Assembly (NCBI GenBank): GCA_900617105.1
Contig: UYFQ01000007.1
Location: 1 to 53,221 of the forward strand
Length of the DNA stretch: 53,221 nt
Source: Hydrurus foetidus
Taxonomy: Eukaryota
Direction of reading: 5' to 3'
Shown here: piece by piece, positions 22,356 to 44,614 of the stretch
Numbering within the stretch: the first letter of the stretch is position 1
Layout of the letters: each line of letters begins with the position of its first letter
The notes under the pieces: model-generated
Databases searched by the model: none
Told to the model about the DNA's origin: nothing
Seen by the model: the letters and a program-made list of their open reading frames with translations, nothing else
Position numbers and translations under genes: made by a program

Positions 22356-22442
22356 TGGTGCCGGAGGCCGGAATCGAACCGGCACGGGTCTTACCCCGCG
22401 GGATTTTGAGTCCCGTGCGTCTACCTATTTCACCACTCCGGC
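22356..22442 (-). tRNA. tRNA-Leu (anticodon CAA)
   Basis: 87-nt cloverleaf: GCCGGAG/CTCCGGC acceptor, CGGGA-CTCAAAA-TCCCG anticodon arm, long variable arm, GGTTCGATTCC, encoded CCA. Confidence 0.96.
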
Positions 22443-28139: not shown

Positions 28140-28844
28140 CTACTGGGAGCGAAACACAAAAGTTCGATGAAAGTCCATAAACGGTTTATGTTGACTCGTA
28201 AGAGTAACCTGCATGCCAATCTCGATACCCAGTTGCTGCGGGTCTGATAGTAGTGGTGCCAGCGAAATCAGACCGTCTTCGCGAAAGGTGATTAATCCTG
28301 CATCGAACGCTTTATCGAGGTTTGGTGTCAGAAGTAGTCCGTTAAATGGATTCAGTCGCTCCGCATTGGTGCATGCCCGCCAAGGCTTGATATGTGAGGC
28401 AACAAGAAGGCCCATGTCGTTGTAGCCTGTAACTGCGCAAGCCTTCCAATAGGCTATGAGCTTCTGACGGAACGTGCCTTGACCGATGCGGCATTTGACG
28501 AGGTCGCGTCGCTCGGTTGGGCTGACGACTGAGTCGTCAAGGATCGCATCTATATCTGTCTCAACATCACCCGCATAGCCTTCAGCAAGGTACTCGGCGA
28601 ACTTGACGAGTGCGCTGCTGTACATGTTATGACCGCGTTCATTGCGCTCCTGAAAAATGGTGAGTAGTCGAATCTTCGATACAACATCGTTGTACGTTGT
28701 GATGCTTGTTAGAGCCGTGAGTGGCCCAGCCATGATGTTGCTCTCAATGGCCCACTGTGAAAGTGGCCCTTGAATGGCACCGGCGTATTTTTCTGCTGAG
28801 GATGAACTTAGTCCTCGGTGCAGCATCCATTCTTTAAAGATCAT
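28140..28844 (-). CDS. HNH endonuclease (putative restriction/defence nuclease)
   Basis: RIGQGTFR, CAVTG, ASHIKPW, NGLLL..NLDKAFD; visibly more AT-rich than neighbours. Confidence 0.85.
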   Translation of the reverse strand: MIFKEWMLHRGLSSSSAEKYAGAIQGPLSQWAIESNIMAGPLTALTSITTYNDVVSKIRLLTIFQERNERGHNMYSSALVKFAEYLAEGYAGDVETDIDAILDDSVVSPTERRDLVKCRIGQGTFRQKLIAYWKACAVTGYNDMGLLVASHIKPWRACTNAERLNPFNGLLLTPNLDKAFDAGLITFREDGLISLAPLLSDPQQLGIEIGMQVTLTSQHKPFMDFHRTFVFRSQ

Positions 28845-32728: not shown

Positions 32729-33787
32729 CTAAACGCCGGAGCGTGGTGTCTTGTCCGTATTGACCCTGTTGCAGATATCGGCAGCCGCAGGCCAGCTGTG
32801 TTCGCCGTAGCTGACGCACCGTGCCGCCCACACCGCCTGCACCACGGCCCGTGCGGTGACTTCAGCGGCCAGCGTACTCAGCACCATCATGCCCATGGTC
32901 TTGCCCGATTGGCCTGTGCCCAGCGCAAACAACGTATCGCCATCCGACATCGTATGCACAGGGTTGATGCTGCGTGCCAAGCCATCATGGGCGACTTGCG
33001 CCAACCGGTGCGCCTGCGCCTTGGTCAGTATTGCATCGGTAGCGATCACGCCCAGCGTGGTGTTGGTGCCTGCCAGCAAGGGCTTGGGCGCATCGCCCGC
33101 CAAAATGGCATCGCGGATGTTCAGCAGAGACAAGCCATCCACGGTGCGAGCCCCCGCAATCACGTCGCCGGTGCGCGGGTCAACCACATCACCGAGCGCA
33201 TTCACGGCGACGATGGCCCCCACCGTCACACCGTCCAGCGTGACAGACGCACTGCCGATACCGCCTTTCATAGCCCGCCCAATGCCAAACAGTTTGCCCA
33301 CCAGCGCACCCGCACCCGCGCCCACATTGCCCTGCGCGGGTACAGCGCGGCTGGCCGCCATGCAGGCTTGGTAGCCCGCTTGCGCGTCAGGCCGAATGCG
33401 GTAATCGCCCACAGGCAGATCGAACAATACCGCCGCAGGCACGATGGGCACCAGCCCATAGTTCACCGACAGGCCGACGCCCTGTTCCTCCAGCCACCGC
33501 ATCACCCCGCCTGCAGCGTCCAAGCCCCAAGCGCTGCCACCGGCGAGCGTGATGGCGTGAACGCGCTCCACCAGATTGCTGGGGTGCAGTAAATCTGTTT
33601 CTCGCGTACCGGGCGCCGCGCCACGCACGTCCACGCCTGCCACCGCGCCTTCGCGGGCGATGATGACGGTGCAGCCCGTCGGGCGGCGTGGGTCGGTGAA
33701 GTGGCCGACTTCGATGCCCAGCACTTGGGTGATCGCCCCAGGGTCTGGGGTGATGAGGGGGGTGTGTGAGGCTTGGTTTGTATTCAC
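32729..33787 (-). CDS. P1/S58 family peptidase (Asn-Thr cleavage type)
   Basis: DVRGAAPGTRET, GGSAWGL, KGGIGSAS, NTT, HTMSDGD. Confidence 0.87.
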   Translation of the reverse strand: MNTNQASHTPLITPDPGAITQVLGIEVGHFTDPRRPTGCTVIIAREGAVAGVDVRGAAPGTRETDLLHPSNLVERVHAITLAGGSAWGLDAAGGVMRWLEEQGVGLSVNYGLVPIVPAAVLFDLPVGDYRIRPDAQAGYQACMAASRAVPAQGNVGAGAGALVGKLFGIGRAMKGGIGSASVTLDGVTVGAIVAVNALGDVVDPRTGDVIAGARTVDGLSLLNIRDAILAGDAPKPLLAGTNTTLGVIATDAILTKAQAHRLAQVAHDGLARSINPVHTMSDGDTLFALGTGQSGKTMGMMVLSTLAAEVTARAVVQAVWAARCVSYGEHSWPAAADICNRVNTDKTPRSGV

Positions 33788-33847
33788 AGCCCGATTATGG
33801 GATATGGGTTGAATGAAACTAGGGTAAGGGTATTTATACCCGGCCCT

Positions 33848-34255
33848 TCAACTGCTGAGCCAAGGCTGCACAAACGCGAACCAGCCTCCCACCAGGTACA
33901 CCAGCACACTGAAACCGTACACCGCTGCCGACACTTTGCGGGTGCGCAGGCAGGCGTGGCGCAACGCGGGGTCTGTCGGGCAGGGTGCGCTGCGGCCCGA
34001 CCATTGCAGGGTGCCTGCTGCTGCCAGCATCAGGCCCGCAAAGCCAAAGAGGCCTTCTTTGTGCTCGCTCAGCCAGACCAGTTGCGGCACTGCAGCCACC
34101 AGAGACGACAGAGCCGCCCCAGCACCCAGGGCCACCAGCAGGGCGGGCAGGGCGCAGCAGACCAAGGTGCTGCTGCTGGCGAACAGGCTGGCAACGGACG
34201 ACCACAGGTTGCTACGGCCGAGCGAGCTGCCGTCGCCCATGTCACCGGGTTTCAT
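33848..34255 (-). CDS. MerT-like three-TM metal transporter
   Basis: CC pair in TM1 (LVCCALP), CP..C in loop, three hydrophobic segments. Confidence 0.65.
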   Translation of the reverse strand: MKPGDMGDGSSLGRSNLWSSVASLFASSSTLVCCALPALLVALGAGAALSSLVAAVPQLVWLSEHKEGLFGFAGLMLAAAGTLQWSGRSAPCPTDPALRHACLRTRKVSAAVYGFSVLVYLVGGWFAFVQPWLSS

Positions 34256-34596
34256 CGTTTGGCCTTGGTATCGGCTTTGATTTCAGCCACCGAGCGCGGC
34301 ACGTTTTCTAGCTTTACCACGTCATAACCGGCTTCGGTGATCTCGGTGCTGATCGTTTGGGTGTCCAGCTTTTGACCGTCTTTGGGTTCCACCGCAACGA
34401 CTTTGTTCTTCAAATCGACAAACACCGCTTTGGTGGCAGGCAGGGCGGACAGGCGTTTTTCGATGCCTTGGGCGCAGAAGGCGCAAACCATGCCGTTCAC
34501 GGTGACGCGCACCGATTCAGCCGCATATGCAGAAGAAAAAAGACCATTGTTGCATGCCAGTAGGGCTGTAACAGCTATGAATTTGATAGTTTTCAT
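34252..34596 (-). CDS. Exported heavy-metal-associated (HMA, MerP-like) protein
   Basis: Signal peptide ending AYA, GMVCAFC, AGY. Confidence 0.85.
   Translation of the reverse strand: MKTIKFIAVTALLACNNGLFSSAYAAESVRVTVNGMVCAFCAQGIEKRLSALPATKAVFVDLKNKVVAVEPKDGQKLDTQTISTEITEAGYDVVKLENVPRSVAEIKADTKAKR
34531..34592 (-). repeat. In-frame copy of the ~65-bp repeat encoding the signal peptide
   Basis: CTATCAAATTCATAGCTGTTACAGC..ATGC aligns in register with the intergenic copy. Confidence 0.6.
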
Positions 34597-34639
34597 GAGG
34601 TTATCCAAAAGAGAGAAAAGAAAGAAAAAAGGAATGGGG

Positions 34640-35332
34640 CTAAAAGATGTACATCAGGTTGAAGCGCACTTGGGCTGATCGGCTGATGCCCAGCTCGATA
34701 AAGTAGCGCTGGTGAATCAAGCGCAGCATGGGGGTGATTTCGGTTTTGCCCGACAAACCCCGCATGCGCCTGAGTTCGACGATCACCCAGGGCTGGGTTT
34801 CGTCGTAGTCCGCCTCAAAGAGCGAGAAACCAGCCCGCACCGAGGAGTAGTCGTGATTTACTTCTTTGGCGCGGTAAAGCCGAGCGTTGGCCGAAAAGTA
34901 GACCCGGGTGGTTTCATAGTCAAGCTGCATGCCTGGCGTAAGCAAAAGCCGGCTGCTTGTCAGGTTATTGCCTGTGAGCGTGCCCATGCCACCCGTTAGC
35001 CACAGGTTGGCTTGGGCCTCGGGCATGTTCCAGCGTGAGAGCAGTCGGGTAACGTTCACCTCCACGGCTTCGCGGGTGAGGCGTTTGTCGTCTGAGCGCA
35101 TGGTGACACCGCCCACGCCGATGGCATCGCGGGCGGTGAGGGCGTAGTTCACCCAGGTTTCTTGCCAGTTTGGGCTGAAGTCGCCCATCACCATCGTGCT
35201 GCCTTTGAAGCCCATAGGCCCGGCAATCGCTTGGGTGCTGAAGGCAAAGCAGGTGCTGAGGCCGATAGCCCAAGCTGTAGCCCAGGCAGCCCGAATGGGG
35301 TGCGGGCGCTGTGAGGCAATGTGGTTTTTCAT
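34640..35332 (-). CDS. Hypothetical exported protein, probable outer-membrane beta-barrel
   Basis: Signal peptide (AIA), alternating amphipathic strands, C-terminal FNLMYIF. Confidence 0.6.
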   Translation of the reverse strand: MKNHIASQRPHPIRAAWATAWAIGLSTCFAFSTQAIAGPMGFKGSTMVMGDFSPNWQETWVNYALTARDAIGVGGVTMRSDDKRLTREAVEVNVTRLLSRWNMPEAQANLWLTGGMGTLTGNNLTSSRLLLTPGMQLDYETTRVYFSANARLYRAKEVNHDYSSVRAGFSLFEADYDETQPWVIVELRRMRGLSGKTEITPMLRLIHQRYFIELGISRSAQVRFNLMYIF

Positions 35333-35421
35333 GACCATCTTTCCGTGCGAACCCGTGCCGATGACGGGGAACTGACCAACCTGTCCAGCGGGTGTGCTGG
35401 ACGCTTTTTAAAGGGGATTGG

Positions 35422-35844
35422 TTACGCGTTCGGGGGCTTCAAGCCAGCTTGTATGTCGGCACTGGCAAAAGCCACTTGGGTGTGAGGAGCCGCAGGGGGA
35501 TGCGGGGCCAGGGTGCGCTGTACAAGCGTTGAGGCTGGCAATGCCGCTGACACACACAGCTCGCAAGTGTCACAGCCGGTACACGGTGCGCTTTCGGGCG
35601 TATCCGACATTGGCATGGTGCAGCCCGGTGGCATGGCAGGGGTGGATGTGGATGAAGATATGGATGAAAAATAGGCTTCAGTGCTTGCTGTATGGGCGGT
35701 AGAAGCTATCAATTTTGATGGTGAACTGACCGATGCCATCATCCTGCCCCCCATCCCTACCGCCATGGCATCGCCCACCCATGCGCGCAGGGGCAGCAGG
35801 GCGACCAAGGCAATCAGCAAAAGGGGGCGTAAGAAGCGCAGCAT
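35422..35844 (-). CDS. Cys-rich leader-type protein (DUF2946/CutF/CruR-like)
   Basis: Signal-like LLPLRAWVGDAMA, CxxCxxCxxC, FASA..GLKPP C-terminus; paralog of 41838-42194. Confidence 0.72.
   Translation of the reverse strand: MLRFLRPLLLIALVALLPLRAWVGDAMAVGMGGRMMASVSSPSKLIASTAHTASTEAYFSSISSSTSTPAMPPGCTMPMSDTPESAPCTGCDTCELCVSAALPASTLVQRTLAPHPPAAPHTQVAFASADIQAGLKPPNA
35661..35722 (-). repeat. In-frame internal copy of the ~65-bp repeat
   Basis: CCATCAAAATTGATAGCTTCTACCGC..AAGC aligns with the other copies. Confidence 0.65.
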
Positions 35845-35935
35845 GGTCGTGAGAGTACGAATGCGCCCCCAGAGTTCCCGTCCATGAGAGCGTGGTGTCC
35901 GATAATTGAAAATCCATTCTCCGTGCCCATCCTTT

Positions 35936-37069
35936 ATGCCTTTGACCCCCTCTCTCAAGCCGCTGCGCATCGTCCCCCAGTCGAGTGCGCAGCCCACGCT
36001 CTCCAAAGCCCAGCAGGCGTTCAACACCCTGGTCAAAAAGATAGAAATCCGCCGCCATGAGCTGGCGCAGTGGCAGGCCACGGTAGACCAGTACCAGCAA
36101 AAGCTGGCCAGCAGTTACCGTCCCTTGATGACCCGCTTTAACCAGCAAAAGACCGCGTTCGTGTTGGCCTTAGATCAAGCTTTGGGCCACATGGAACAGC
36201 GCAAGGGGCTGACCCGCACCGAGCGCACGGTGGTGGAAGACATCATTTGCAATCTCGCGGAGCAATTGCTGTCGGGGCCAGAGACGCAAGACGATGCCGT
36301 CAAAGAACTCTACAACCGCTACCACGAGGTGGACTTCGACACCCAAGAGGCGCAGGCGGTCAGCGCCTTCAAAGCGGGCCTGGAGCGCGATCTGGGTGTT
36401 GAGCTGGACGACTGGCCCGAAGACGCAACCCCCGCCGAGGTGTTGGCGCAATTGCAAGCCAAAATGACCGGGCTAGAGGACGAGCAGCGCCCCCCACCCA
36501 AAAAGAAAACCGCCAAGCAGCTCGCCCGCGAAGCCAATCAAAAAGCCGAAGAAGACCAGACCAGCCTTTCCATCCGCGAGGTCTACCGCAAACTGGCCAG
36601 CGCCCTGCACCCTGACCGTGAACCTGACGAGGCTGAGCGCGAGCGCAAAACCGGGTTGATGCAGCGTGTCAACCAAGCCTACGCCAAGAAAGATTTGCTC
36701 AAACTGCTGGAGTTGCAACTGGAGCTGGAGCACATCGACGAACACACCATCGCGGGCCTGTCGGAAGACCGCCTCAAGCATTACAGCAAGGTATTGAAAG
36801 AGCAAGTGAAAGAGCTGGAGCAAGAAATCGCCCAGCTGGAGCATCCGCTGAAAGCCCAGTTTCATGTCCACCCGTACCAAACGCTGTCGTACAAGAGCGT
36901 GATGCCCCTGATGATGCGCGACATGGCCGATTTACAGCGCCACATCAACCAAATTAAGCAGGATATGCGGGTGTTGGGCGACCCCCCCGCCTTCAAGGTG
37001 TGGATCAAGGCCTACAAGCGCGAGCTGAAGGCCCACCAAGCAGAGCGCGATGAGTTTGATTTTTTCTGA
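35936..37069 (+). CDS. Coiled-coil protein with internal J-domain
   Basis: IREVYRKLASALHPDR..MQRVNQAY. Confidence 0.82.
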   Translation: MPLTPSLKPLRIVPQSSAQPTLSKAQQAFNTLVKKIEIRRHELAQWQATVDQYQQKLASSYRPLMTRFNQQKTAFVLALDQALGHMEQRKGLTRTERTVVEDIICNLAEQLLSGPETQDDAVKELYNRYHEVDFDTQEAQAVSAFKAGLERDLGVELDDWPEDATPAEVLAQLQAKMTGLEDEQRPPPKKKTAKQLAREANQKAEEDQTSLSIREVYRKLASALHPDREPDEAERERKTGLMQRVNQAYAKKDLLKLLELQLELEHIDEHTIAGLSEDRLKHYSKVLKEQVKELEQEIAQLEHPLKAQFHVHPYQTLSYKSVMPLMMRDMADLQRHINQIKQDMRVLGDPPAFKVWIKAYKRELKAHQAERDEFDFF

Positions 37070-37088
37070 AGCGGCTTGGAGAACCAAG

Positions 37089-37379
37089 CTACTTCGTTGG
37101 AGTTGCTTGCAACGTCAGGATGGTGATGGCTCCATCTACGTTTTCTGCGGTGAACGCCACGCTGTCCCCGGCTTTTAAACCTTCAAGCAGCTTGGTTTCT
37201 TTTACACGGAACACCATCGTCATGCCTGGCATGTCCAGGTTTTTGATGGGGCTGTGTTTGAGGGTTATTTTGCCGTTTTCGGTGTCAATTTTGCGCACTA
37301 CACCGGTAGTCATGTCTGCAGTTTGAGCCATCGCAGCGCTGCTCAGCAGCAGGGTAAGACTTGCAATCCAGAGTTTCAT
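37089..37379 (-). CDS. CusF-like periplasmic copper-binding protein
   Basis: Signal peptide, ITLKH..NLDMPGMTMVF. Confidence 0.88.
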   Translation of the reverse strand: MKLWIASLTLLLSSAAMAQTADMTTGVVRKIDTENGKITLKHSPIKNLDMPGMTMVFRVKETKLLEGLKAGDSVAFTAENVDGAITILTLQATPTK

Positions 37380-37415
37380 GGTGTTTCCTTGGGTGGGTTG
37401 GGGGACGAACAGCGC

Positions 37416-37910
37416 TTATTTGGCAGAAACGGTGATCGTTCCGCGCATGCCGGCTTGGTAGTGCCCGGCGATCAGGCACGCAAAGTCGAACTGGCCGGGT
37501 TTGTTGAACGTCCAGATAATTTCGCCTGATTTAGCGGGGGCGACATGGGCCATATAGGGTTCTTCATGTTCCATCGTGGGGAACTTGACCATCAAAGCGG
37601 CGTGCTCTTCGTTTTCTTTGGTGGTGCCAATCACGAACTCATGCATCACCGCGCCGTCGTTTTTGACGGTAAATTTCACCGTTTCGCCCAGCTTTACCTT
37701 GATTTGGTTCGGTGTGAAGCGCATGGCATCGCTCATGCTGATGGCGACGGTGCGTTTGACGGCTTTGGCATCACCTGCAATCCCCCAGTCTTTTTGCTCT
37801 TTTTTGACAGGGCCAGTTTTGGCGGCATGGGTTTCGTCGCCGTGAGGAAAAGCGAATGTGCTGACACTGCTTATGACGATAGCGAGAAGGGTTGTGCTGA
37901 GGTTATTCAT
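37416..37910 (-). CDS. Periplasmic cupredoxin (CopI/plastocyanin-like)
   Basis: MRFTP, HEFVIG, ACLIAGHYQAGM type-1 Cu ligands. Confidence 0.88.
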   Translation of the reverse strand: MNNLSTTLLAIVISSVSTFAFPHGDETHAAKTGPVKKEQKDWGIAGDAKAVKRTVAISMSDAMRFTPNQIKVKLGETVKFTVKNDGAVMHEFVIGTTKENEEHAALMVKFPTMEHEEPYMAHVAPAKSGEIIWTFNKPGQFDFACLIAGHYQAGMRGTITVSAK

Positions 37911-37939
37911 GTCGATTCCTTAAAAAATGGCTGCTATGG

Positions 37940-38524
37940 TTACTGAGACGATGTTGGGGTGTCGCTGTAGCCACGTAAGACGCTGTACTGCGTAATCTGC
38001 TGTTGGGTGAGCAATTGGGCTTGTTTTAAATGGGTTTCTAAGTGCGCGTTGCGTACTTTCGCCTGTATTTCACCTGTGTGTTGCGTCAGCAAGGTCAATC
38101 GGGTCGTATCAATATGGTGATGGGCAAAAGCTTGATCCAGTTGTCGCTCTGCTTCAACCCATTGCTTGCCGAGTGCGCGAACTTCTGCTTTGTGCTGTGC
38201 CAGAAGCTGCGCGGTGGCTTCGCGCTGTGCTGGTGAGAGGTGCAAGGCATCAGCCAGTTCCAGGGTGTGCATGGGGCCAGGGTAGCCATTGAGTTCAGCT
38301 GCTTTGGCCAGTTCCATACCTTTGCCCGCCAGCATGTCGTTGACTTGGGTGTCTGATAAGGCTTTGATGACGCGCGTTTGTTGTCCTGCATAAGCGTTCG
38401 TTGTCTTCGCTGTATGTTCAAGATCATGCCGATGTTCAAGGGGCACCGATTTTTGGCTGAATGCACTTGCACCGCTTACCAACAGGGCGGTAGCAGCTAT
38501 AAATTTAAGAGTGATTGAACGCAT
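37940..38524 (-). CDS. Spy/CpxP-like periplasmic heavy-metal-associated protein
   Basis: Signal peptide, GMELAKAAELNGYPGP, LTQQQ, helical. Confidence 0.68.
   Translation of the reverse strand: MRSITLKFIAATALLVSGASAFSQKSVPLEHRHDLEHTAKTTNAYAGQQTRVIKALSDTQVNDMLAGKGMELAKAAELNGYPGPMHTLELADALHLSPAQREATAQLLAQHKAEVRALGKQWVEAERQLDQAFAHHHIDTTRLTLLTQHTGEIQAKVRNAHLETHLKQAQLLTQQQITQYSVLRGYSDTPTSSQ
38451..38514 (-). repeat. In-frame copy of the ~65-bp repeat encoding the signal peptide
   Basis: CTCTTAAATTTATAGCTGCTACCGC-N11-GCGGT. Confidence 0.65.
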
Positions 38525-38550
38525 GATTTTCCTTTGAGAGTTGAGTCAAA

Positions 38551-39981
38551 TTAATGGCCGCTGTGGCCCTGGGGTTTGCGAACCTGTACTTCGATGGGGT
38601 TAAGTTTTTTCGCTGTGCTGGCGACGGCTGGCGTGCTGTCGGCTTTGAAGCGTGCTGGCTCGGCCAGTGGCCCTGTATGTTCAAAAGCCACCGTGCCCGC
38701 TGGGTGCTTGAACCAGCCGGGGTTGCTGTAATCGCCCGCTTTTTGGTCTTTGCGCACTTTCAGCACGCTGAACATGCCGCCCATCTCGATTCCGCCAAAT
38801 GGCCCTTGGCCGGTCATCATGGGCACGGTGTTGTCGGGCAGGGGCATTTCCATTTCGCCCATGTCGGCCATGCCGCGCTCGCCCATCACCATGTAATCGG
38901 GGATGAGGCGGGTGATTTTTTTGGCCACATCCCGGTGGTCTACGCCGATCATGGTGGGCACGTTGTGGCCCATCGCGTTCATGGTGTGGTGGCTTTTGTG
39001 GCAATGAAAGGCCCAGTCGCCTTCTTCGTCTGCCAAGAAGTCAATTTGCCGCATTTGCCCCACCGCCACATCGGTGGTGACTTCGGGCCAGCGGGCGGAT
39101 TTGGGCACGGGCCCGCCGTCGGTGCCGGTGACGGTGAATTCGTGGCCGTGCAGGTGGATGGGGTGGTTGGTCATGGTCAGGTTGCCGATGCGGATGCGAA
39201 CCTTGTCGTTTTGGCGCACGCACAGCGGGTCAATGCCAGGGAAGATGCGGCTGTTCCATGTCCATAAATTCTGGTCAAGCATGGTCATGATCTTGGGCGT
39301 GTAGCTGCCAGGGTCAATGTCGTAGGCGTTGAGCAGGAAGCAAAAATCGCGCTGAACCTCGTCGATATGTGCATTTTTTGCTTTGGGGTGCGTCACCCAA
39401 AACCCCATCATCCCCATCGCCATTTGCGTCATCTCATCCGCGTGGGGGTGGTACATGAAGGTGCCAGGGCGGCGGGCGACAAATTCATAAACATAGGTTT
39501 TGCCGGGTTGGATGGATTTTTGTGTCAGGCCGGACACGCCGTCCATGCCGTTGGGCAAGCGCTGGCCGTGCCAATGCACGCTGGTGTGTTCGGGCAGGCG
39601 GTTGGTGACGAAGCAGCGCACGCGGTCACCTTCCACCACCTCAATCGTCGGGCCGGGCGACTGGCCGTTGTAGCCCCAAAGATGGGCCTTCATGCCAGGG
39701 GCCATCTCGCGCACCACGGGTTCGGCCACGAGGTGAAACTCTTTCACGCCGTTGTTCATGCGCCAGGGCAGCGTCCAGCCGTTCAGCGTGACCACCGGGT
39801 TGTAAGGCTGGCCGTTGGGTGGAACCAGTGGCGGCATGGTGTTGGGCTTGGTTTGTGTGACCAGCTCGGGCAGGGCTGCCAGGGCGACTTGGCTGATGGC
39901 TGTGGCGGCGACAGCACCGCCCGCGAGACTGGCCATGCCGGAGATTCCGGCTGTTTTAAAAAATTGGCGTCTGGAGTTCAT
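38551..39981 (-). CDS. Tat-exported multicopper oxidase
   Basis: SRRQFFK Tat motif, HWHG, MYHPH, HPIHLHG, HCHKSHH. Confidence 0.92.
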   Translation of the reverse strand: MNSRRQFFKTAGISGMASLAGGAVAATAISQVALAALPELVTQTKPNTMPPLVPPNGQPYNPVVTLNGWTLPWRMNNGVKEFHLVAEPVVREMAPGMKAHLWGYNGQSPGPTIEVVEGDRVRCFVTNRLPEHTSVHWHGQRLPNGMDGVSGLTQKSIQPGKTYVYEFVARRPGTFMYHPHADEMTQMAMGMMGFWVTHPKAKNAHIDEVQRDFCFLLNAYDIDPGSYTPKIMTMLDQNLWTWNSRIFPGIDPLCVRQNDKVRIRIGNLTMTNHPIHLHGHEFTVTGTDGGPVPKSARWPEVTTDVAVGQMRQIDFLADEEGDWAFHCHKSHHTMNAMGHNVPTMIGVDHRDVAKKITRLIPDYMVMGERGMADMGEMEMPLPDNTVPMMTGQGPFGGIEMGGMFSVLKVRKDQKAGDYSNPGWFKHPAGTVAFEHTGPLAEPARFKADSTPAVASTAKKLNPIEVQVRKPQGHSGH

Positions 39982-40022
39982 GGTGAATTCTTTACGTTGT
40001 GAGGTGGCGTGGCTGTAGGTGT

Positions 40023-41429
40023 TCAATGCGCTGCACCGCCAGCGACGTTGGGGGTTGACATCGCAGTCATCGGAGCCGCCGTGGGCTGGCCTATCAGTGC
40101 GGTTTGCAGGGCCGCGTCGGCCAGCCAAAACTGCTGCTCAGCGGCAATCGCGGCGATCACGCTGCCCACTTGGTCGCGGGTGTCGGCCAGCAGCTCGAAC
40201 ACGCCAATCAGCATGCCGTTGTAGCGCAGCACGTTTTCTTCGGCGATGGTTTGGCGCAGCGGCACCACCTCGTCGCGGTAGTGGCGGGCCACGTCAAAGG
40301 CGGTGCGGTAGGCGGAATAGCTTTCGCGCAGGTGCGAGCCAGCAGCGCGGGCAGTAGCTTCCAGCCGGTTTGCCGAAGCCAGGGTGCGGGCATTCATGGC
40401 ATCGCGTTGCAGGCCACCGCTGTCGAAAACGGGCAAACGCACGCTGACCTCGAAGCCACGCTGGGTGTTGGTGTGGCCTGCACCGTTGTCAAAAACGCTG
40501 TCACGCCGCACACCCAGTTCGATGTCGGTCAGGCTGGTGATGCGGTTCAAGCCTTGGGCCGTGGCCGCGCTCTCGAATTCCGCCTGGGCCAGTTGCAGGT
40601 CAAGCCGTCCGGTGCTGGCCGCACGGCTTGTGGCTTCGGGTGTGCGCGGGGCTTGGGGCAAATCAGGCAGTCGCTTAGGCAGCGCCAGCGTTGGGGCTTG
40701 GCTGTCGGTTAAGCCCAGCAGGCGAACCAAGGCTTCGCGGGTGGCGTTGGCCGTGTGCTGCGCGGTGGCCCATTGCGTGGCAGCATCGGCATAAAACGCC
40801 TGCTGGCGGGCGCGCTGTAGCTTGCTGAAGTTGCCCGCAGACTGCATGCGCCGCGCCAATTCGGCGCTGGCCTGCGCAGCGTCGTTCACCTGCTCTGCAT
40901 AAACCAGGCTTTGCTGCGCCGCCACCGCCTTGACCCAGGCCATGCGTACTTGGGTGATGTGCGCGACCACGTTGCTGGTTAAGCGCAACTGGGCTTGAAC
41001 TGTTTGGCGTTGCGCGAGGTTGTGGCGCTGGGGCAGCATCAGCAGGTCTAACAGGCCGAAGGAGAGCAATCGGCCAATCTCAAGCTCGTCCACCAACCGC
41101 AGGCGCTCCAGTGTGAAGGCGGGGTTGGCGATGCGCCCGCTTTGGGCGGCGCTTGCCGCATCGGCCCAGTTTTGCGCCAGCAGGGCTTGTACTGCGGGGC
41201 TGCCCGCCAGTGCCAGCCGTACCGCATCGCTTTGGGTGACGGGTTGCTGCAACAACGTCGCTGCTACCTGCTTTTGCGCATCGCGCTGCTCTGGGGTCAG
41301 TGCCAAGGCTAATTCGCCTTGGGTGAAATCGGCGGCGACTTGGTTGGTGCGGGCCACAGACTGCTCGAAGTTGACGCTGGCACAGCCAGACAGCACAGCG
41401 AGGGTGATGGCGCTGACAACGGCTTTCAT
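40023..41429 (-). CDS. TolC/CusC-family outer membrane lipoprotein
   Basis: Lipobox LSGC, LPVFD, YNGMLIGVFELL. Confidence 0.88.
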   Translation of the reverse strand: MKAVVSAITLAVLSGCASVNFEQSVARTNQVAADFTQGELALALTPEQRDAQKQVAATLLQQPVTQSDAVRLALAGSPAVQALLAQNWADAASAAQSGRIANPAFTLERLRLVDELEIGRLLSFGLLDLLMLPQRHNLAQRQTVQAQLRLTSNVVAHITQVRMAWVKAVAAQQSLVYAEQVNDAAQASAELARRMQSAGNFSKLQRARQQAFYADAATQWATAQHTANATREALVRLLGLTDSQAPTLALPKRLPDLPQAPRTPEATSRAASTGRLDLQLAQAEFESAATAQGLNRITSLTDIELGVRRDSVFDNGAGHTNTQRGFEVSVRLPVFDSGGLQRDAMNARTLASANRLEATARAAGSHLRESYSAYRTAFDVARHYRDEVVPLRQTIAEENVLRYNGMLIGVFELLADTRDQVGSVIAAIAAEQQFWLADAALQTALIGQPTAAPMTAMSTPNVAGGAAH

Positions 41430-41740
41430 GGCTTGGCACCGTGGTTGGCGTGAGGGTTGGCATGAGGATTGGAGGGGGTGGATGCACCCACAGGCGCATC
41501 AGGCTGCGCCGCCTCTTTCGCATAGGCCCGCCAGCCACCGATTTTTTCAACGGTGTCGTTGGTGGCCCGCCAAGGGGCCACGGGCTGGTCGTTAAAGGCT
41601 TGGTAGCCGGTGAAAACAGAGCGGTAATTCAGCGGTGTCAACGCAGGGCGTTGCGGTGCAGCATCAGGTGGTGCTTGGGCGAAAGCGGCGGCGCAAAGCC
41701 ACGCGGATGAGGCTACGGCCAGGACTTGAAAGGTTTTCAA
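41426..41740 (-). CDS. Small exported hypothetical protein of the copper cluster
   Basis: TTG start with GGAG RBS, signal peptide, WRATNDTVEKIGGWRAYAKEA, His-containing tail; overlaps the TolC start. Confidence 0.75.
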   Translation of the reverse strand: MKTFQVLAVASSAWLCAAAFAQAPPDAAPQRPALTPLNYRSVFTGYQAFNDQPVAPWRATNDTVEKIGGWRAYAKEAAQPDAPVGASTPSNPHANPHANHGAKP

Positions 41741-41744
41741 AGCA

Positions 41745-41838
41745 ATCTCCAGAAGGAAAGAACAGCAGCGAGGGCTGCGGAGCTGGTGCTGGTAGCTTGA
41801 TTGCCGTCAAATTACAGACGGAATCAGAGCCTGGAGAT
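41745..41838 (-). promoter_or_regulatory. SD-sequestering multibranch RNA structure
   Basis: ATCTCCAG at the leader stop pairs with CTGGAGAT (the RBS); two internal hairpins. Confidence 0.6.
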
Positions 41839-42194
41839 CACAGAAGCGGTGGTTTGAAGCCTTGGGCAGGCTCTGCGCTGGCAAAGTGCGTGGGCACCGG
41901 GGTGATGCGTGCCGCAGGCAGCGCGGGCAGCAGGGGGGTAAATTCAGTCACAGCCAAACCCAGCAGATGGCAGAGTTGGCACTGGGTGCAGCTTACGGTG
42001 GTGTCGGTTGCTTTGTTGGCATCGTCCGTGTTGGCTGCGTCAACGCCGGCCATCATCTCGGCGCAATGGGCTGAAGCGGCAGCGGCGGTGGATGCCACAC
42101 CGGCGGTAGCGCTTACAGGCATCGCCATCGAGTCACCCACCCAAGCACGCAGGGGCAGCAGGGCGATCAGCAGGATGAGGAAGAAACGGCGCAT
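41838..42194 (-). CDS. Cys-rich leader-type protein (DUF2946/CutF/CruR-like)
   Basis: LLPLRAWVGDSMA, CTQCQLCH, FASA..GFKPP. Confidence 0.75.
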   Translation of the reverse strand: MRRFFLILLIALLPLRAWVGDSMAMPVSATAGVASTAAAASAHCAEMMAGVDAANTDDANKATDTTVSCTQCQLCHLLGLAVTEFTPLLPALPAARITPVPTHFASAEPAQGFKPPLL

Positions 42195-42224
42195 GAGGTA
42201 ATGATAGCTGGCGGCTGAAAAAGT

Positions 42225-42644
42225 TCAATTGAAATACAAGGCGATACGGTCAGTCGTCCACGTCGCAACACCCGTCCCGAAGAAGTCGGCATCCTCTGTC
42301 CAGACGGGGCAGTCCAAGGTCAGGGCGCAAGCCAGTACAGGCCAATCGTCGGCATCTCGCACAGCGATGCGTTGCAGCGCCTGTTGCTGCACGCCCTCAT
42401 ACAACTCGGCATCTATGGGCTGAACCACCGTTTCAAGGTGATCCAGCACCAGCATGGCCGCACTGGCGTCAACCCCGCGTTTCTTTAGCAGTGCAGGCAG
42501 GTACTTGCGTGCATCGGCATAGGCCACGTCAGGTGCAAAAAATTGCACCATTGCAGCGTTTTCAAAAATCAGTTCACGTACCCGCTTGCCCAGCACGGCG
42601 CGAATCAAGATGTTGGCATCAAGAATGATTGCCTTGCTGCTCAT
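42225..42644 (-). CDS. PIN-domain toxin
   Basis: ILDANILI, RDADDWP, WTEDADF acidic residues. Confidence 0.9.
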   Translation of the reverse strand: MSSKAIILDANILIRAVLGKRVRELIFENAAMVQFFAPDVAYADARKYLPALLKKRGVDASAAMLVLDHLETVVQPIDAELYEGVQQQALQRIAVRDADDWPVLACALTLDCPVWTEDADFFGTGVATWTTDRIALYFN

Positions 42645-42928
42645 GCTGCCTTGGCTTTCTGCATTTTGACCGGAGCGACAGCCTTCCTGCGCACCGCTTT
42701 GAAGTCGGCCACCACGTCCTCCACGTTAACGCTGTGCGTCTCAAGCAGCTTGTCCAAGGCTTTGCTGGCTTTTTTCAATGCCGCGAGATCGGCCTCAACC
42801 TGTCCCTGTGTAGGAATGAAGTAGCCTACGGTCTGGCCATGCCGTGTGACTGCCACAGGCGTGCTTGACGCGATGTATTCAGCCAAGCCTGTGCGGAACT
42901 CTCGAATGCCAACCCGTGCGGTTTCCAT
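42641..42928 (-). CDS. Phd/YefM-family antitoxin
   Basis: VGIREFR..PVAVTRHG; ATGA overlap with the toxin. Confidence 0.87.
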   Translation of the reverse strand: METARVGIREFRTGLAEYIASSTPVAVTRHGQTVGYFIPTQGQVEADLAALKKASKALDKLLETHSVNVEDVVADFKAVRRKAVAPVKMQKAKAA

Positions 42929-42952
42929 AGTGTGTGCCTTTTTGTGAATCTG

Positions 42953-42967
42953 TGTGTACACATTTTA
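42953..42967 (-). promoter_or_regulatory. TA operator palindrome next to -10 box
   Basis: TGTGTACACA palindrome abutting TAAAAT; the core GTGTACAC matches the P1 Phd box. Confidence 0.6.
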
Positions 42968-42997
42968 GAGCGTTTTAACGCCCGTACTCCGCATCCT

Positions 42998-44614
42998 TCA
43001 GGGCACAAGCCTTGTCGCGCTGGCCACCTCATCCGTCTGCGGCCAGTCGCGGCTGAAATGCAGGCCTCGGCTTTCATGGCGGCTTTGCGCACTGCGCACG
43101 ATCAACTCTGCCACTTGCACCAAATTGCGCAGTTCCAGCAGGTCGCGGCTGACGTGGAAGTATGCGTAAAACTCGGTGATCTCGGCTTGCAGCAAGGCAA
43201 TGCGGTGGGCGGCGCGTTCCAGGCGTTTGGTGGTGCGCACGATGCCCACGTAGTCCCACATGAAGCGGCGCAGTTCGTCCCAGTTGTGCGAGATCACGAC
43301 GCACTCGTCGGCATCGGTGACGCGGCTGTCGTCCCACAAGGGCAATGTGGCGGGTGGCGGCGGGGCTGGCTCGATTGCCATCGCGTCGGTAGCCGCCCGT
43401 GCAAATACCATGCACTCCAAGAGCGAATTGCTGGCCAGCCGGTTCGCGCCGTGCAGGCCGGTACACGCGGTTTCGCCTACCGCGTACAGCCCGGCCACGT
43501 CGGTGCGCCCGTGCAGGTCGGTTTGCACGCCGCCGCAGGTGTAGTGCGCGGCGGGCACCACGGGGATGGGGTGGCGGGTGATGTCGATGCCGAGTTCGAG
43601 GCAGCGGGCCAGGATGTTGGGGAAGTGGTGCTGCAAAAACGCGGGGCTTTGGTGCGAGATGTCGAGGTAAACGCAGTCGAGGCCGTGTTTTTTCATTTCA
43701 AAGTCGATGGCGCGGGCCACCACGTCGCGCGGGGCCAGTTCCAGGCGGTCGTCGTGTGCGGCCATGAAGCGCGTGCCGTCCGGCAGCACCAAGCGCCCAC
43801 CTTCGCCGCGCACCGCTTCCGAAATCAAAAACGATTTGGCGTGCGGGTGGTAGAGGCAGGTGGGGTGGAACTGGATGAATTCCATGTTGCTGACGGCGCA
43901 CCCCGCACGCCACGCGGCAGCGATGCCGTCGCCTGTGGCGGTGTCCGGGTTGGTGGTGTACAGGTAGACCTTGCCCGCGCCGCCGGTGGCCAGCACGGTG
44001 TGGGTGGCGCTGAGGGTGATGACGGTATCGTGCCGTTCGTCAAAGGCGTAGAGGCCCAGGCAACGGTTGGGTGCAGAGGTGACGGCGGTGTCTGCGGGGC
44101 TCAGTTTGTGCGAGGTGATCAAGTCCACCAAATTGTGGTGCTCGAACAGTTCCACATTGGGCCGCTGGCGCACCTGTGCCATCAAGGTGTGCTGTACCGC
44201 CGCCCCGGTGGCATCGGTGATGTGGACGATGCGGCGCTGGCTGTGGCCGCCTTCGCGTGTCAGGTGCAATTGGTCAGAGTCTTCTTCCAGCGTGAACGCC
44301 ACGCCCAGCTCGCGCAGCCACGCAATGGCGGCCGGGGCGTTCTCGACGACGAAGCGGGTGGCCGCTTCGTCGCACAGCCCGGCACCGGCCACCCGCGTGT
44401 CGTCCACATGCGCGTCAAACGAATCGCCCTCGGCCAGCACAGCGGCAATACCGCCCTGTGCCCAAGCGCTGGCACCGTCGTTCAATTGGCGTTTGGTCAA
44501 CACCGCCACGCGCTGGTGCGGTGGGGCCAACAGCGCGGCGGAAAGCCCAGCCAAACCGCTGCCGACGATGAGCAAATCGAACTGTAAAACCTGACTGTTT
44601 GGACAAGAATTCAT
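42998..44614 (-). CDS. nadB: L-aspartate oxidase
   Basis: GSGLAG, WAQGGIA, REGGHS, QFHPT, HGANRLASNSLLE. Confidence 0.95.
   Translation of the reverse strand: MNSCPNSQVLQFDLLIVGSGLAGLSAALLAPPHQRVAVLTKRQLNDGASAWAQGGIAAVLAEGDSFDAHVDDTRVAGAGLCDEAATRFVVENAPAAIAWLRELGVAFTLEEDSDQLHLTREGGHSQRRIVHITDATGAAVQHTLMAQVRQRPNVELFEHHNLVDLITSHKLSPADTAVTSAPNRCLGLYAFDERHDTVITLSATHTVLATGGAGKVYLYTTNPDTATGDGIAAAWRAGCAVSNMEFIQFHPTCLYHPHAKSFLISEAVRGEGGRLVLPDGTRFMAAHDDRLELAPRDVVARAIDFEMKKHGLDCVYLDISHQSPAFLQHHFPNILARCLELGIDITRHPIPVVPAAHYTCGGVQTDLHGRTDVAGLYAVGETACTGLHGANRLASNSLLECMVFARAATDAMAIEPAPPPPATLPLWDDSRVTDADECVVISHNWDELRRFMWDYVGIVRTTKRLERAAHRIALLQAEITEFYAYFHVSRDLLELRNLVQVAELIVRSAQSRHESRGLHFSRDWPQTDEVASATRLVP

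Follow-up and report, generated by a model that had tools for sequence, protein, structure and literature searches.

We found that a 118-residue open reading frame on the minus strand of the window, by which we mean the whole stretch of 53,221 nucleotides that was analysed, is probably a CutF-type cis-acting copper sensor: copper would prolong a ribosomal pause at its C-terminal KPP motif, the predicted helix over the next ribosome-binding site would open and the predicted copper-detoxification genes would be switched on. By analogy with CutF, we infer that the leader senses copper and stalls. As far as comparative sequence analysis goes, the support for the RNA switch is conserved, position-specific complementarity between the leader stop and the downstream Shine-Dalgarno (SD) sequence, together with register switching among homologs, and not textbook covariation. 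The leader and its parts are as follows.

42201..42228, minus strand: predicted promoter, TTGAAC (overlapping GAACTT), 16 nt and TATCAT, from a promoter-pattern match
41838..42194, minus strand: leader ORF, 118 aa, CutF/CopL/CzcI/DUF2946-related by ORF calling and profile matches
42123..42194, minus strand: residues 1-24, a Sec signal peptide by prediction from the sequence (RR, hydrophobic core, S-M-A)
41970..41990, minus strand: C69-x-x-C72-x-x-C75, putative metal or redox sensor, from CxxCxxC in homologs
41874..41885, minus strand: conserved F-A-S-A, residues 104-107, candidate exit-tunnel element, from homologs
41838..41855, minus strand: K114-P115-P116-L-L-stop, candidate pause site, from homologs

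Judged by its profile matches, the leader is a distant relative of DUF2946, CopL and CzcI that lies under all three curated cut-offs: it scores 20.8 bits against DUF2946 (PF11162; E 6.7e-4, gathering cut-off 23.7), 25.9 bits against NCBIfam CopL (NF033807; cut-off 40) and 31 bits against NCBIfam CzcI (NF045614; cut-off 100), the last being its best NCBIfam match and spanning residues 1-83. DUF2946 was matched at E<=0.1 by 11 of 20 aligned homologs (best E 2e-5), and the ESM Atlas neighbours of the leader, at 0.96-0.97, were unnamed or partly DUF2946/CzcI clusters. These matches and neighbours back the kinship with CutF-, CruR- and CopL-type leaders that had been proposed in a sequence-only reading of this DNA. 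That reading also named CutF and CruR as exported CxxC leaders; the Cys motif here is CxxCxxC instead of a single CxxC, and it recurs in 107 of the 119 non-redundant homologs. At the N-terminus, charge, hydropathy and the S-M-A site (D-A-M-A in the leader family) would fit either a signal peptide or an uncleaved anchor, and the AlphaFold model has a helix at residues 2-23 and is mostly low-confidence and unstructured (pLDDT 61, pTM 0.23).

The C-terminal end of the ORF (42194-41838) reads GFKPPLL-stop as had been stated, and the description of a KPP rather than a RAPP end holds across the family, with K before PP in 91% of 101 homologs. KPP followed by two residues and the stop was found in 92/119 homologs; PP is invariant among the 101 leaders with a two-residue tail, and the residue at -2 before PP is variable. 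The distance from the last Cys to the first Pro is 39 residues in 99/119 homologs and 39-40 in 108/119, and FASA lies 8-11 residues before PP (S 90%, A 85%, F 65% in the 101 leaders). Aside from these, a divergent branch (L078, L151, L162, L168, L172, L184, L186 and L187) ends in (L/D/E)RPPR plus 2-5 residues, and several of its members likewise show predicted pairing of their final codons with the SD of the next gene.

Homologous loci were pooled from several searches, one of which supplied the best 80 of 181 matches to one N-terminal pattern and another 2 loci, and one protein search supplied 17 homologous proteins. Genome sampling used 114 of 130 match rows, excluding 2 duplicates and 14 weak rows, and gave leader matches in 110 of 251 sampled genomes from the family of Rhodoferax. 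An HMM returned 198 hits comprising 178 unique leaders. Of these, 2 lacked PP, 6 had no downstream ORF and 16 had a weak SD, among them the second leader of the window; removal of these 24 left 154 leaders, or 119 at <80% identity. Downstream starts were picked by SD strength and distance, not by pairing, and a few are wrong. A tblastn search with the leader against plasmids gave no match; with homolog P0010 as the query, one Polaromonas plasmid was matched. This plasmid of Polaromonas naphthalenivorans CJ2 (L197, 6209-13796) carries a leader-small protein-TolC-oxidase-cupredoxin operon with a register-1 helix (registers are defined below), and a heavy-metal two-component system and copK stand in front. 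One genome, G181 (L119, L135, L155), has five leader matches, two as duplicated pairs.

The leader stop is separated by a 97-nt spacer from a TTG-initiated ORF of 104 aa, which starts at 41740 on the minus strand as had been read, and the following RNA elements are predicted around this junction.

41831..41841, minus strand: anti-SD strand of an outer helix of 11 bp in register 2, lying for the most part behind the stop, from folding
41742..41752, minus strand: SD-side strand of the outer helix, with GGAG at 41750-41747, from sequence and folding
41798..41826, minus strand: inner hairpin 1, its 5' arm holding CGTCTG, the motif shared by the family, at 41820-41815 (+18..+23 from the stop)
41765..41778, minus strand: inner hairpin 2, then a U-rich run, from folding
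41746..41759, minus strand: local fallback hairpin TTTCC/GGAGA, which by prediction masks the SD again after the outer helix has opened

The strings on which the idea of an anti-SD switch was originally built all lie on the minus strand where they had been placed: ATCTCCAG begins at 41838, the final base of the leader TGA stop, CTGGAGAT begins at 41752, the inner-hairpin strings TGATTCCGTC and GACGGCAATCA begin at 41826 and 41808, and the GCAGC/GCTGC hairpin starts at 41778. The 8-mer ATCTCCAG occurs 6 times in the window, counting both strands, and about 0.0008 occurrences would be expected at <=15 positions from the stop. The segment 41880-41725 folds with an MFE of -52.6 kcal/mol (z -4.46; 0/200 shuffles folded as well), and this same MFE fold holds both inner hairpins and the 11-bp outer helix, in which 41841-41831 pairs with 41752-41742 through two G-U pairs among others. 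In a relative that is 82% identical (L001), the 11-bp helix is entirely Watson-Crick, and for one DNA contig of a relative no outer-helix change was listed (filtered list, depth <5). As a terminator, inner hairpin 2 is a weak match at chance level (14 terminator-like structures vs 13.0 in shuffles), and a tRNA was the sole Rfam match in the window and in relatives L001 and L002.

Sequestration of the SD at the leader stop proved to be conserved by prediction across homologs. The SD core was predicted to pair with positions -9..+12 of the leader stop in 87 of the 119 non-redundant loci, as against 13 of 273 control junctions, a crude control in which many junctions are not true gene pairs; in the remaining 32 loci the predicted pairing is absent, in some via mis-called starts. 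Two registers are used: the last codons of the leader (ATY-TCC-TGA; register 1) in 50 loci, and the bases directly after the stop, as in the window (register 2), in 35, with 2 loci split between them. Matched partners form duplexes with a mean energy of -11.1 kcal/mol vs -9.1 for swapped partners (sd 0.2; 0/10000 permutations). Furthermore, when partners were swapped between nearest neighbours in 50 disjoint pairs, 31 pairs favoured the own partner, 11 favoured the swapped one and 8 were ties (p=0.003), and three control windows reached no significance in this test. The final Ser codon is TCC in 59/60 KPPIS leaders vs 16% in downstream genes.

The covariation check across orthologs that had been suggested thus gave a divided answer: the complementarity is conserved and passes the swap test, but column-level covariation is weak. 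Column-wise mutual information (MI-APC) did not single out the predicted helix pairs, and RNAalifold found no consensus structure among 31 register-2 sequences. In the pre-selected register-2 set, the named helix is paired in only 62% of cells, with some rows misregistered by MAFFT, and double changes occur in 12 cells vs 5.7 in shuffles of that pre-selected set. A quick tree, poorly resolved with 12/98 branches starred, implies at least 7 changes for register 1 and at least 4 for register 2, and gives no order for these changes.

Another conserved element lies in the spacer, where the motif (C/G)G(T/C)C(C/T)G was found in 79/101 leaders, starting at +18/+19 in 74 of them and preceded by CC at +10/+11 (92% and 87%). 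It is predicted to be paired (P 0.72-0.94) as the 5' arm of the inner hairpin, and its partner strand varies more than the motif itself. Against the leader coding region the motif showed no clear pairing peak beyond G-rich stretches; an RNA-polymerase pause or a protein site would be our guesses at its role.

The geometry of the helix bears on which stall could open it. We modelled the ribosome by deleting the sequence up to a chosen edge. Here the bases that pair with the SD occupy +2 to +5 past the stop, and the predicted helix persists with P 0.93 when coverage extends to +1, falling to P 0.09 at +2. Among register-2 loci, 29/35 are still paired at edge 0 and 2/35 at +3, and 10/42 register-1 loci resort to register 2 as far as +2. 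Counted from the first base of the P site, the 3' edge of a ribosome is 12-15 nt away. Coverage would consequently reach -3 to 0 in a RAP/P-type stall, where Pro115 occupies the P site, 0 to +3 in a KPP/Z stall, where Pro116 does, and +6 to +9 in a stall at termination. Since the anti-SD here lies mostly after the stop, a RAP/P-type stall would not free the SD; and because the helix opens at +2/+3 only, the RNA predicts a KPP/Z or later stall. The proposal that a ribosome paused at KPP covers the anti-SD therefore fails as it was worded, the SD-pairing bases lying beyond the reach of a Pro115 stall; what the model predicts is release by a stall at Pro116 or at termination, not at Pro115. In RAPP peptides and CruR, it is the first Pro that occupies the P site during the stall (PMC12992588). 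Every ribosome that terminates at the leader stop would likewise open the helix for a short time.

Release is predicted to lower the cost of opening the SD from 10.9 to about 5.7 kcal/mol in the window, and from about 8 to 3.5 kcal/mol in the family medians. The window SD still costs ~5.7 kcal/mol because the local TTTCC/GGAGA hairpin can form, by which it is predicted to be mostly paired (unpaired 2-5%) even after release. In the model, then, a weak local hairpin may cover the SD once the outer helix has opened.

Upstream of the leader, the predicted -10 element ends 6 nt before the ATG, and therefore a leaderless transcript is predicted. This is the sole promoter-like match in 33000-43200, weak alone as shuffles give 2.6, and two oligo-dT RNA runs mapped 0 reads. 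Of 164 non-redundant upstream regions, 115 have TAnnnT at -14..-11, where shuffles average 7 and reach at most 18, and 84 have GAAC at -36..-30 (3.6 on average in shuffles); 3 have an SD before the leader. Before the downstream starts TAnnnT at -14..-11 was found in 0/119. Twelve leaders combine GAACY with a TCnnA -10, promoters which resemble the sigma-E consensus, and GAAC(TT) is similar to the -35 of envelope-stress sigma-E. As to the surroundings, a Phd/YefM-like antitoxin and PIN-domain toxin pair (42225-42961, minus strand) sits between nadB and the leader promoter, the stop codon of the PIN gene overlapping the leader -35 element; the pair is absent in L001, where nadB abuts the promoter.

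Behind the leader, the genes for TolC, multicopper oxidase, cupredoxin and CusF bear out the copper-operon context that had been assigned to it.

41426..41740, minus strand: small predicted exported protein, 104 aa, TTG start, first regulated gene
40023..41429, minus strand: TolC/OEP-family outer-membrane protein (PF02321)
38551..39981, minus strand: multicopper oxidase with a TAT-like N-terminus (PF07732/PF07731)
37940..38524, minus strand: Metal_resist/LTXXQ-like periplasmic protein, below cut-offs
37416..37910, minus strand: CopI-like cupredoxin, from profile matches
37089..37379, minus strand: CusF (PF11604)
35422..35844, minus strand: second, paralogous leader with CxxCxxC, ending GLKPPNA-stop

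Homologs of these metal genes were found in 66 of the 69 loci with >=2.4 kb of downstream DNA. The 104-aa protein matched no Pfam/NCBIfam family, and a related domain occurs in the first downstream gene of 74/119 loci; in 19 loci this family forms the N-terminal part of a 315-560-aa protein, with a weak OEP match in 2 of 5 scanned. The second leader has a sigma-E-like promoter and heads a unit (33848-35844, minus strand) with an HMA protein, a small membrane protein carrying Cys-Cys and, first in order, a conserved 232-aa protein that matched no family. In about 10 homologous loci, such a unit stands behind a leader. The SD downstream of the second leader is weak, and no stop-proximal anti-SD helix was predicted for it in the window or in L001. 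Between cusF and the second leader, the copper cluster is split by the gene for a coiled-coil protein of 387 aa (35906-37069, plus strand) in which a DnaJ domain was weakly matched. Elsewhere the window carries genes for a Tn5-type transposase (3-1340), a tRNA (22359-22442) and an HNH endonuclease (28140-28844).

The earlier remark that the window holds no CueR or CopRS is borne out for the ORFs scanned (39 further long ones plus 14), with no MerR, response-regulator or histidine-kinase family among these 53. This absence is no argument, because the Polaromonas plasmid homolog sits beside a heavy-metal two-component system. CueR and CopS/CusS gave no match over cut-off in relatives G001 and G002. 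A MerR-family gene 17 kb from the leader in G001 was considered as CueR and rejected, being below the CueR cut-off; it adjoins a cation-transporter-like gene.

Comparison with published systems places the leader closest to the CutF mechanism. The rules for CutF-like proteins (PMC9973294) call for <150 aa, PP in the last 15 residues, an N-terminal Sec signal peptide, a Cys/His metal motif located in the mature portion and a same-strand downstream gene within 1000 nt in a metal context; the leader has 118 aa, P115-P116, C69/C72/C75 and a gene 97 nt downstream in such a context, and by these sequence rules it is CutF-like, its signal peptide being a prediction. An SD-sequestering helix reachable by a paused ribosome, the mark of the CutF mechanism, is indicated by prediction and conservation from Pro116 onward. 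CutF itself (Rhodobacter capsulatus, cutFOG, DUF2946-like; PMC8456105, PMC9973294) also has 118 aa with a signal peptide (here predicted), ends PPP-R-L-stop, so that in both leaders two residues and the stop follow the last Pro, and shares an anti-SD helix over the next RBS (here predicted) and a multicopper oxidase operon; from the last Cys to Pro115 it counts 41 residues (derived from 10.1101/2025.02.05.636593), as against 39 here. CutF depends on its signal peptide, on the Cys motif, on PPP and on the stem-loop, it shows stalling in an efp mutant (PMC9973294; 10.1101/2025.02.05.636593), and its tail alone is not a strong staller (PMC9973294). On the other hand, CutF has CxxxC, GPPP and a 40-nt stem-loop where the present leader has CxxCxxC, KPP and a 97-nt multi-hairpin spacer. 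Unlike in CutF, the anti-SD here lies in or just after the stop, with two registers across the family, the first target is a small exported protein or TolC, and the leader mRNA is predicted to be leaderless; CutF-like proteins are mostly upstream of OEP genes (PMC9973294).

The resemblance to CruR (Bp2923, Bordetella pertussis; PMC9426467) is more partial. It too is an upstream ORF of the DUF2946 type from a betaproteobacterium, the distance from Cys to ProPro is fixed, the spacer is long and the 3' region is rich in C, but its arrest was shown with a RAPP motif (PMC12992588), in which the Arg is irreplaceable, where the present leader has G-F-K-P-P and no such Arg. Membership in the RAPP/CruR group was ruled out by the missing R-A/G-P-P and by the 39-residue spacing from Cys to first Pro, compared with 47 in CruR and ~45 under the RAPP rule. 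Furthermore, CruR targets uptake through Rho termination from an mRNA with a 45-nt 5' UTR; the present operon is for detoxification, with predicted SD masking and a predicted leaderless mRNA. CopL, CzcI and CusD/SilD of Cupriavidus metallidurans (CusD by description only) are likewise small Cys/His leaders heading metal-resistance operons. In that species cusD is constitutive and cusCBAF copper-induced, with no adjacent regulator (PMC9045368, PMC7563307, PMC10304878), and czcI2 mRNA is leaderless (PMC7563307); unlike the present leader, CzcI has no C-terminal Pro motif (PMC9973294). A search covering few subscription papers turned up no publication that deals with a Comamonadaceae leader of the KPP type or with its RNA switch, and 'KPP' is absent from the available text of PMC12992588, PMC8456105 and the CutF supplement. 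The CutF survey (PMC9973294) holds thousands of look-alikes and, in its accessible portion, reports spacer lengths, not conserved RNA switches; one of its 29 clusters may already be a Comamonadaceae cluster of the KPP type.

Several of these features would also suit transcriptional polarity of the CruR kind, in which the paused ribosome governs either Rho termination or pausing of RNA polymerase within the spacer, while masking of the SD plays a secondary part or lets Rho catch untranslated mRNA. Over the 3' half of the leader and over the spacer there is more C than G (per 78 nt, 25-34 C and 15-21 G), the spacer motif is fixed at +18/+19 with a conserved 5' strand and a variable partner, CruR acts through Rho (PMC9426467), and copper raises cusCBAF transcripts, not cusD (PMC7563307). 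However, the anti-SD signal is tied to position and stands up in the swap test, and the CruR direction, in which copper switches off, is unsuited to detoxification genes. The C bias is also explicable by Pro/Ala codons and the motif is a poor fit to the elemental pause consensus, and we regard polarity as unlikely. A metal-independent coupling, or a secretion/redox monitor whose output tracks leader translation, export or disulfide status, strikes us as quite unlikely: a terminating ribosome would cover both registers, and the GAAC(TT) before 84/164 leaders, 12 with a TCnnA -10, is like a sigma-E -35, but such a device has no need for a Cys triad 39 residues from PP (99/119) or an invariant PP, and the context is almost always one of metal genes.

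That the product is simply a working periplasmic or membrane-anchored metal-binding protein of the CzcI 'quencher' type, with the helix only tuning expression, appears very improbable. CzcI is the best NCBIfam match over residues 1-83 and is described as a quencher of Czc activity (PMC9045368), but CzcI lacks the C-terminal Pro motif (PMC9973294) that is invariant in the 101 two-residue-tail leaders; moreover, there is nucleotide-level constraint at the stop, and the model is mostly low-confidence and unstructured (pLDDT 61, pTM 0.23). Finally, a two-component system adjoins one homolog, as it would if the complementarity arose by chance and an ordinary transcription factor encoded elsewhere controlled the operon; given pairing in 87/119 loci vs 13/273, the outcome of the swap tests and no CueR or CopS/CusS over cut-off in G001 and G002, we find this scarcely credible.

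Under the favoured reading, that of a CutF-type copper sensor, the predicted leaderless mRNA would begin at the leader ATG and the signal peptide would engage SecYEG co-translationally. Without a ribosome, the SD would pair with bases around the stop, as sequence and folding across homologs suggest. With Pro116 in the P site, CxxCxxC would have emerged to ~41-47 residues from the peptidyl-transferase centre; given tunnel and translocon lengths, it is doubtful that a Cys at this distance reaches the periplasm. Copper on the Cys triad, or blocked disulfide formation, would lengthen an EF-P-sensitive pause, as in CutF, and by our computation release would require a ribosome edge at +2/+3, hence a KPP/Z or termination stall and not a RAP/P one. 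The SD-opening cost would then drop by ~5 kcal/mol and the 104-aa gene would be translated, and coupling or mRNA protection would extend expression to TolC, oxidase, cupredoxin and CusF. A more ambitious proposal, which we consider possible but rather doubtful, is a distinct Comamonadaceae metal-sensing class, combining a leaderless mRNA from a hybrid sigma-70/sigma-E-like promoter, three Cys exactly 39 residues from a FASA...KPP/Z or termination stall, an anti-SD in the last codons or behind the stop and a +10..+23 spacer element pausing RNA polymerase. If this were true, one stalled ribosome would set both translation and transcription of the operon.

The mechanism class, that of CutF, is already published, and the gain here is in breadth and detail. 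To our knowledge, CutF and CruR, which act in opposite directions, are the only copper-responsive leaders that have been worked out. The leader family described here gives comparative evidence for an SD switch, and its stall codon is sharply predicted from RNA geometry alone. Overall, such a switch would explain how copper detoxification could be induced without a neighbouring transcription factor in many environmental betaproteobacteria.
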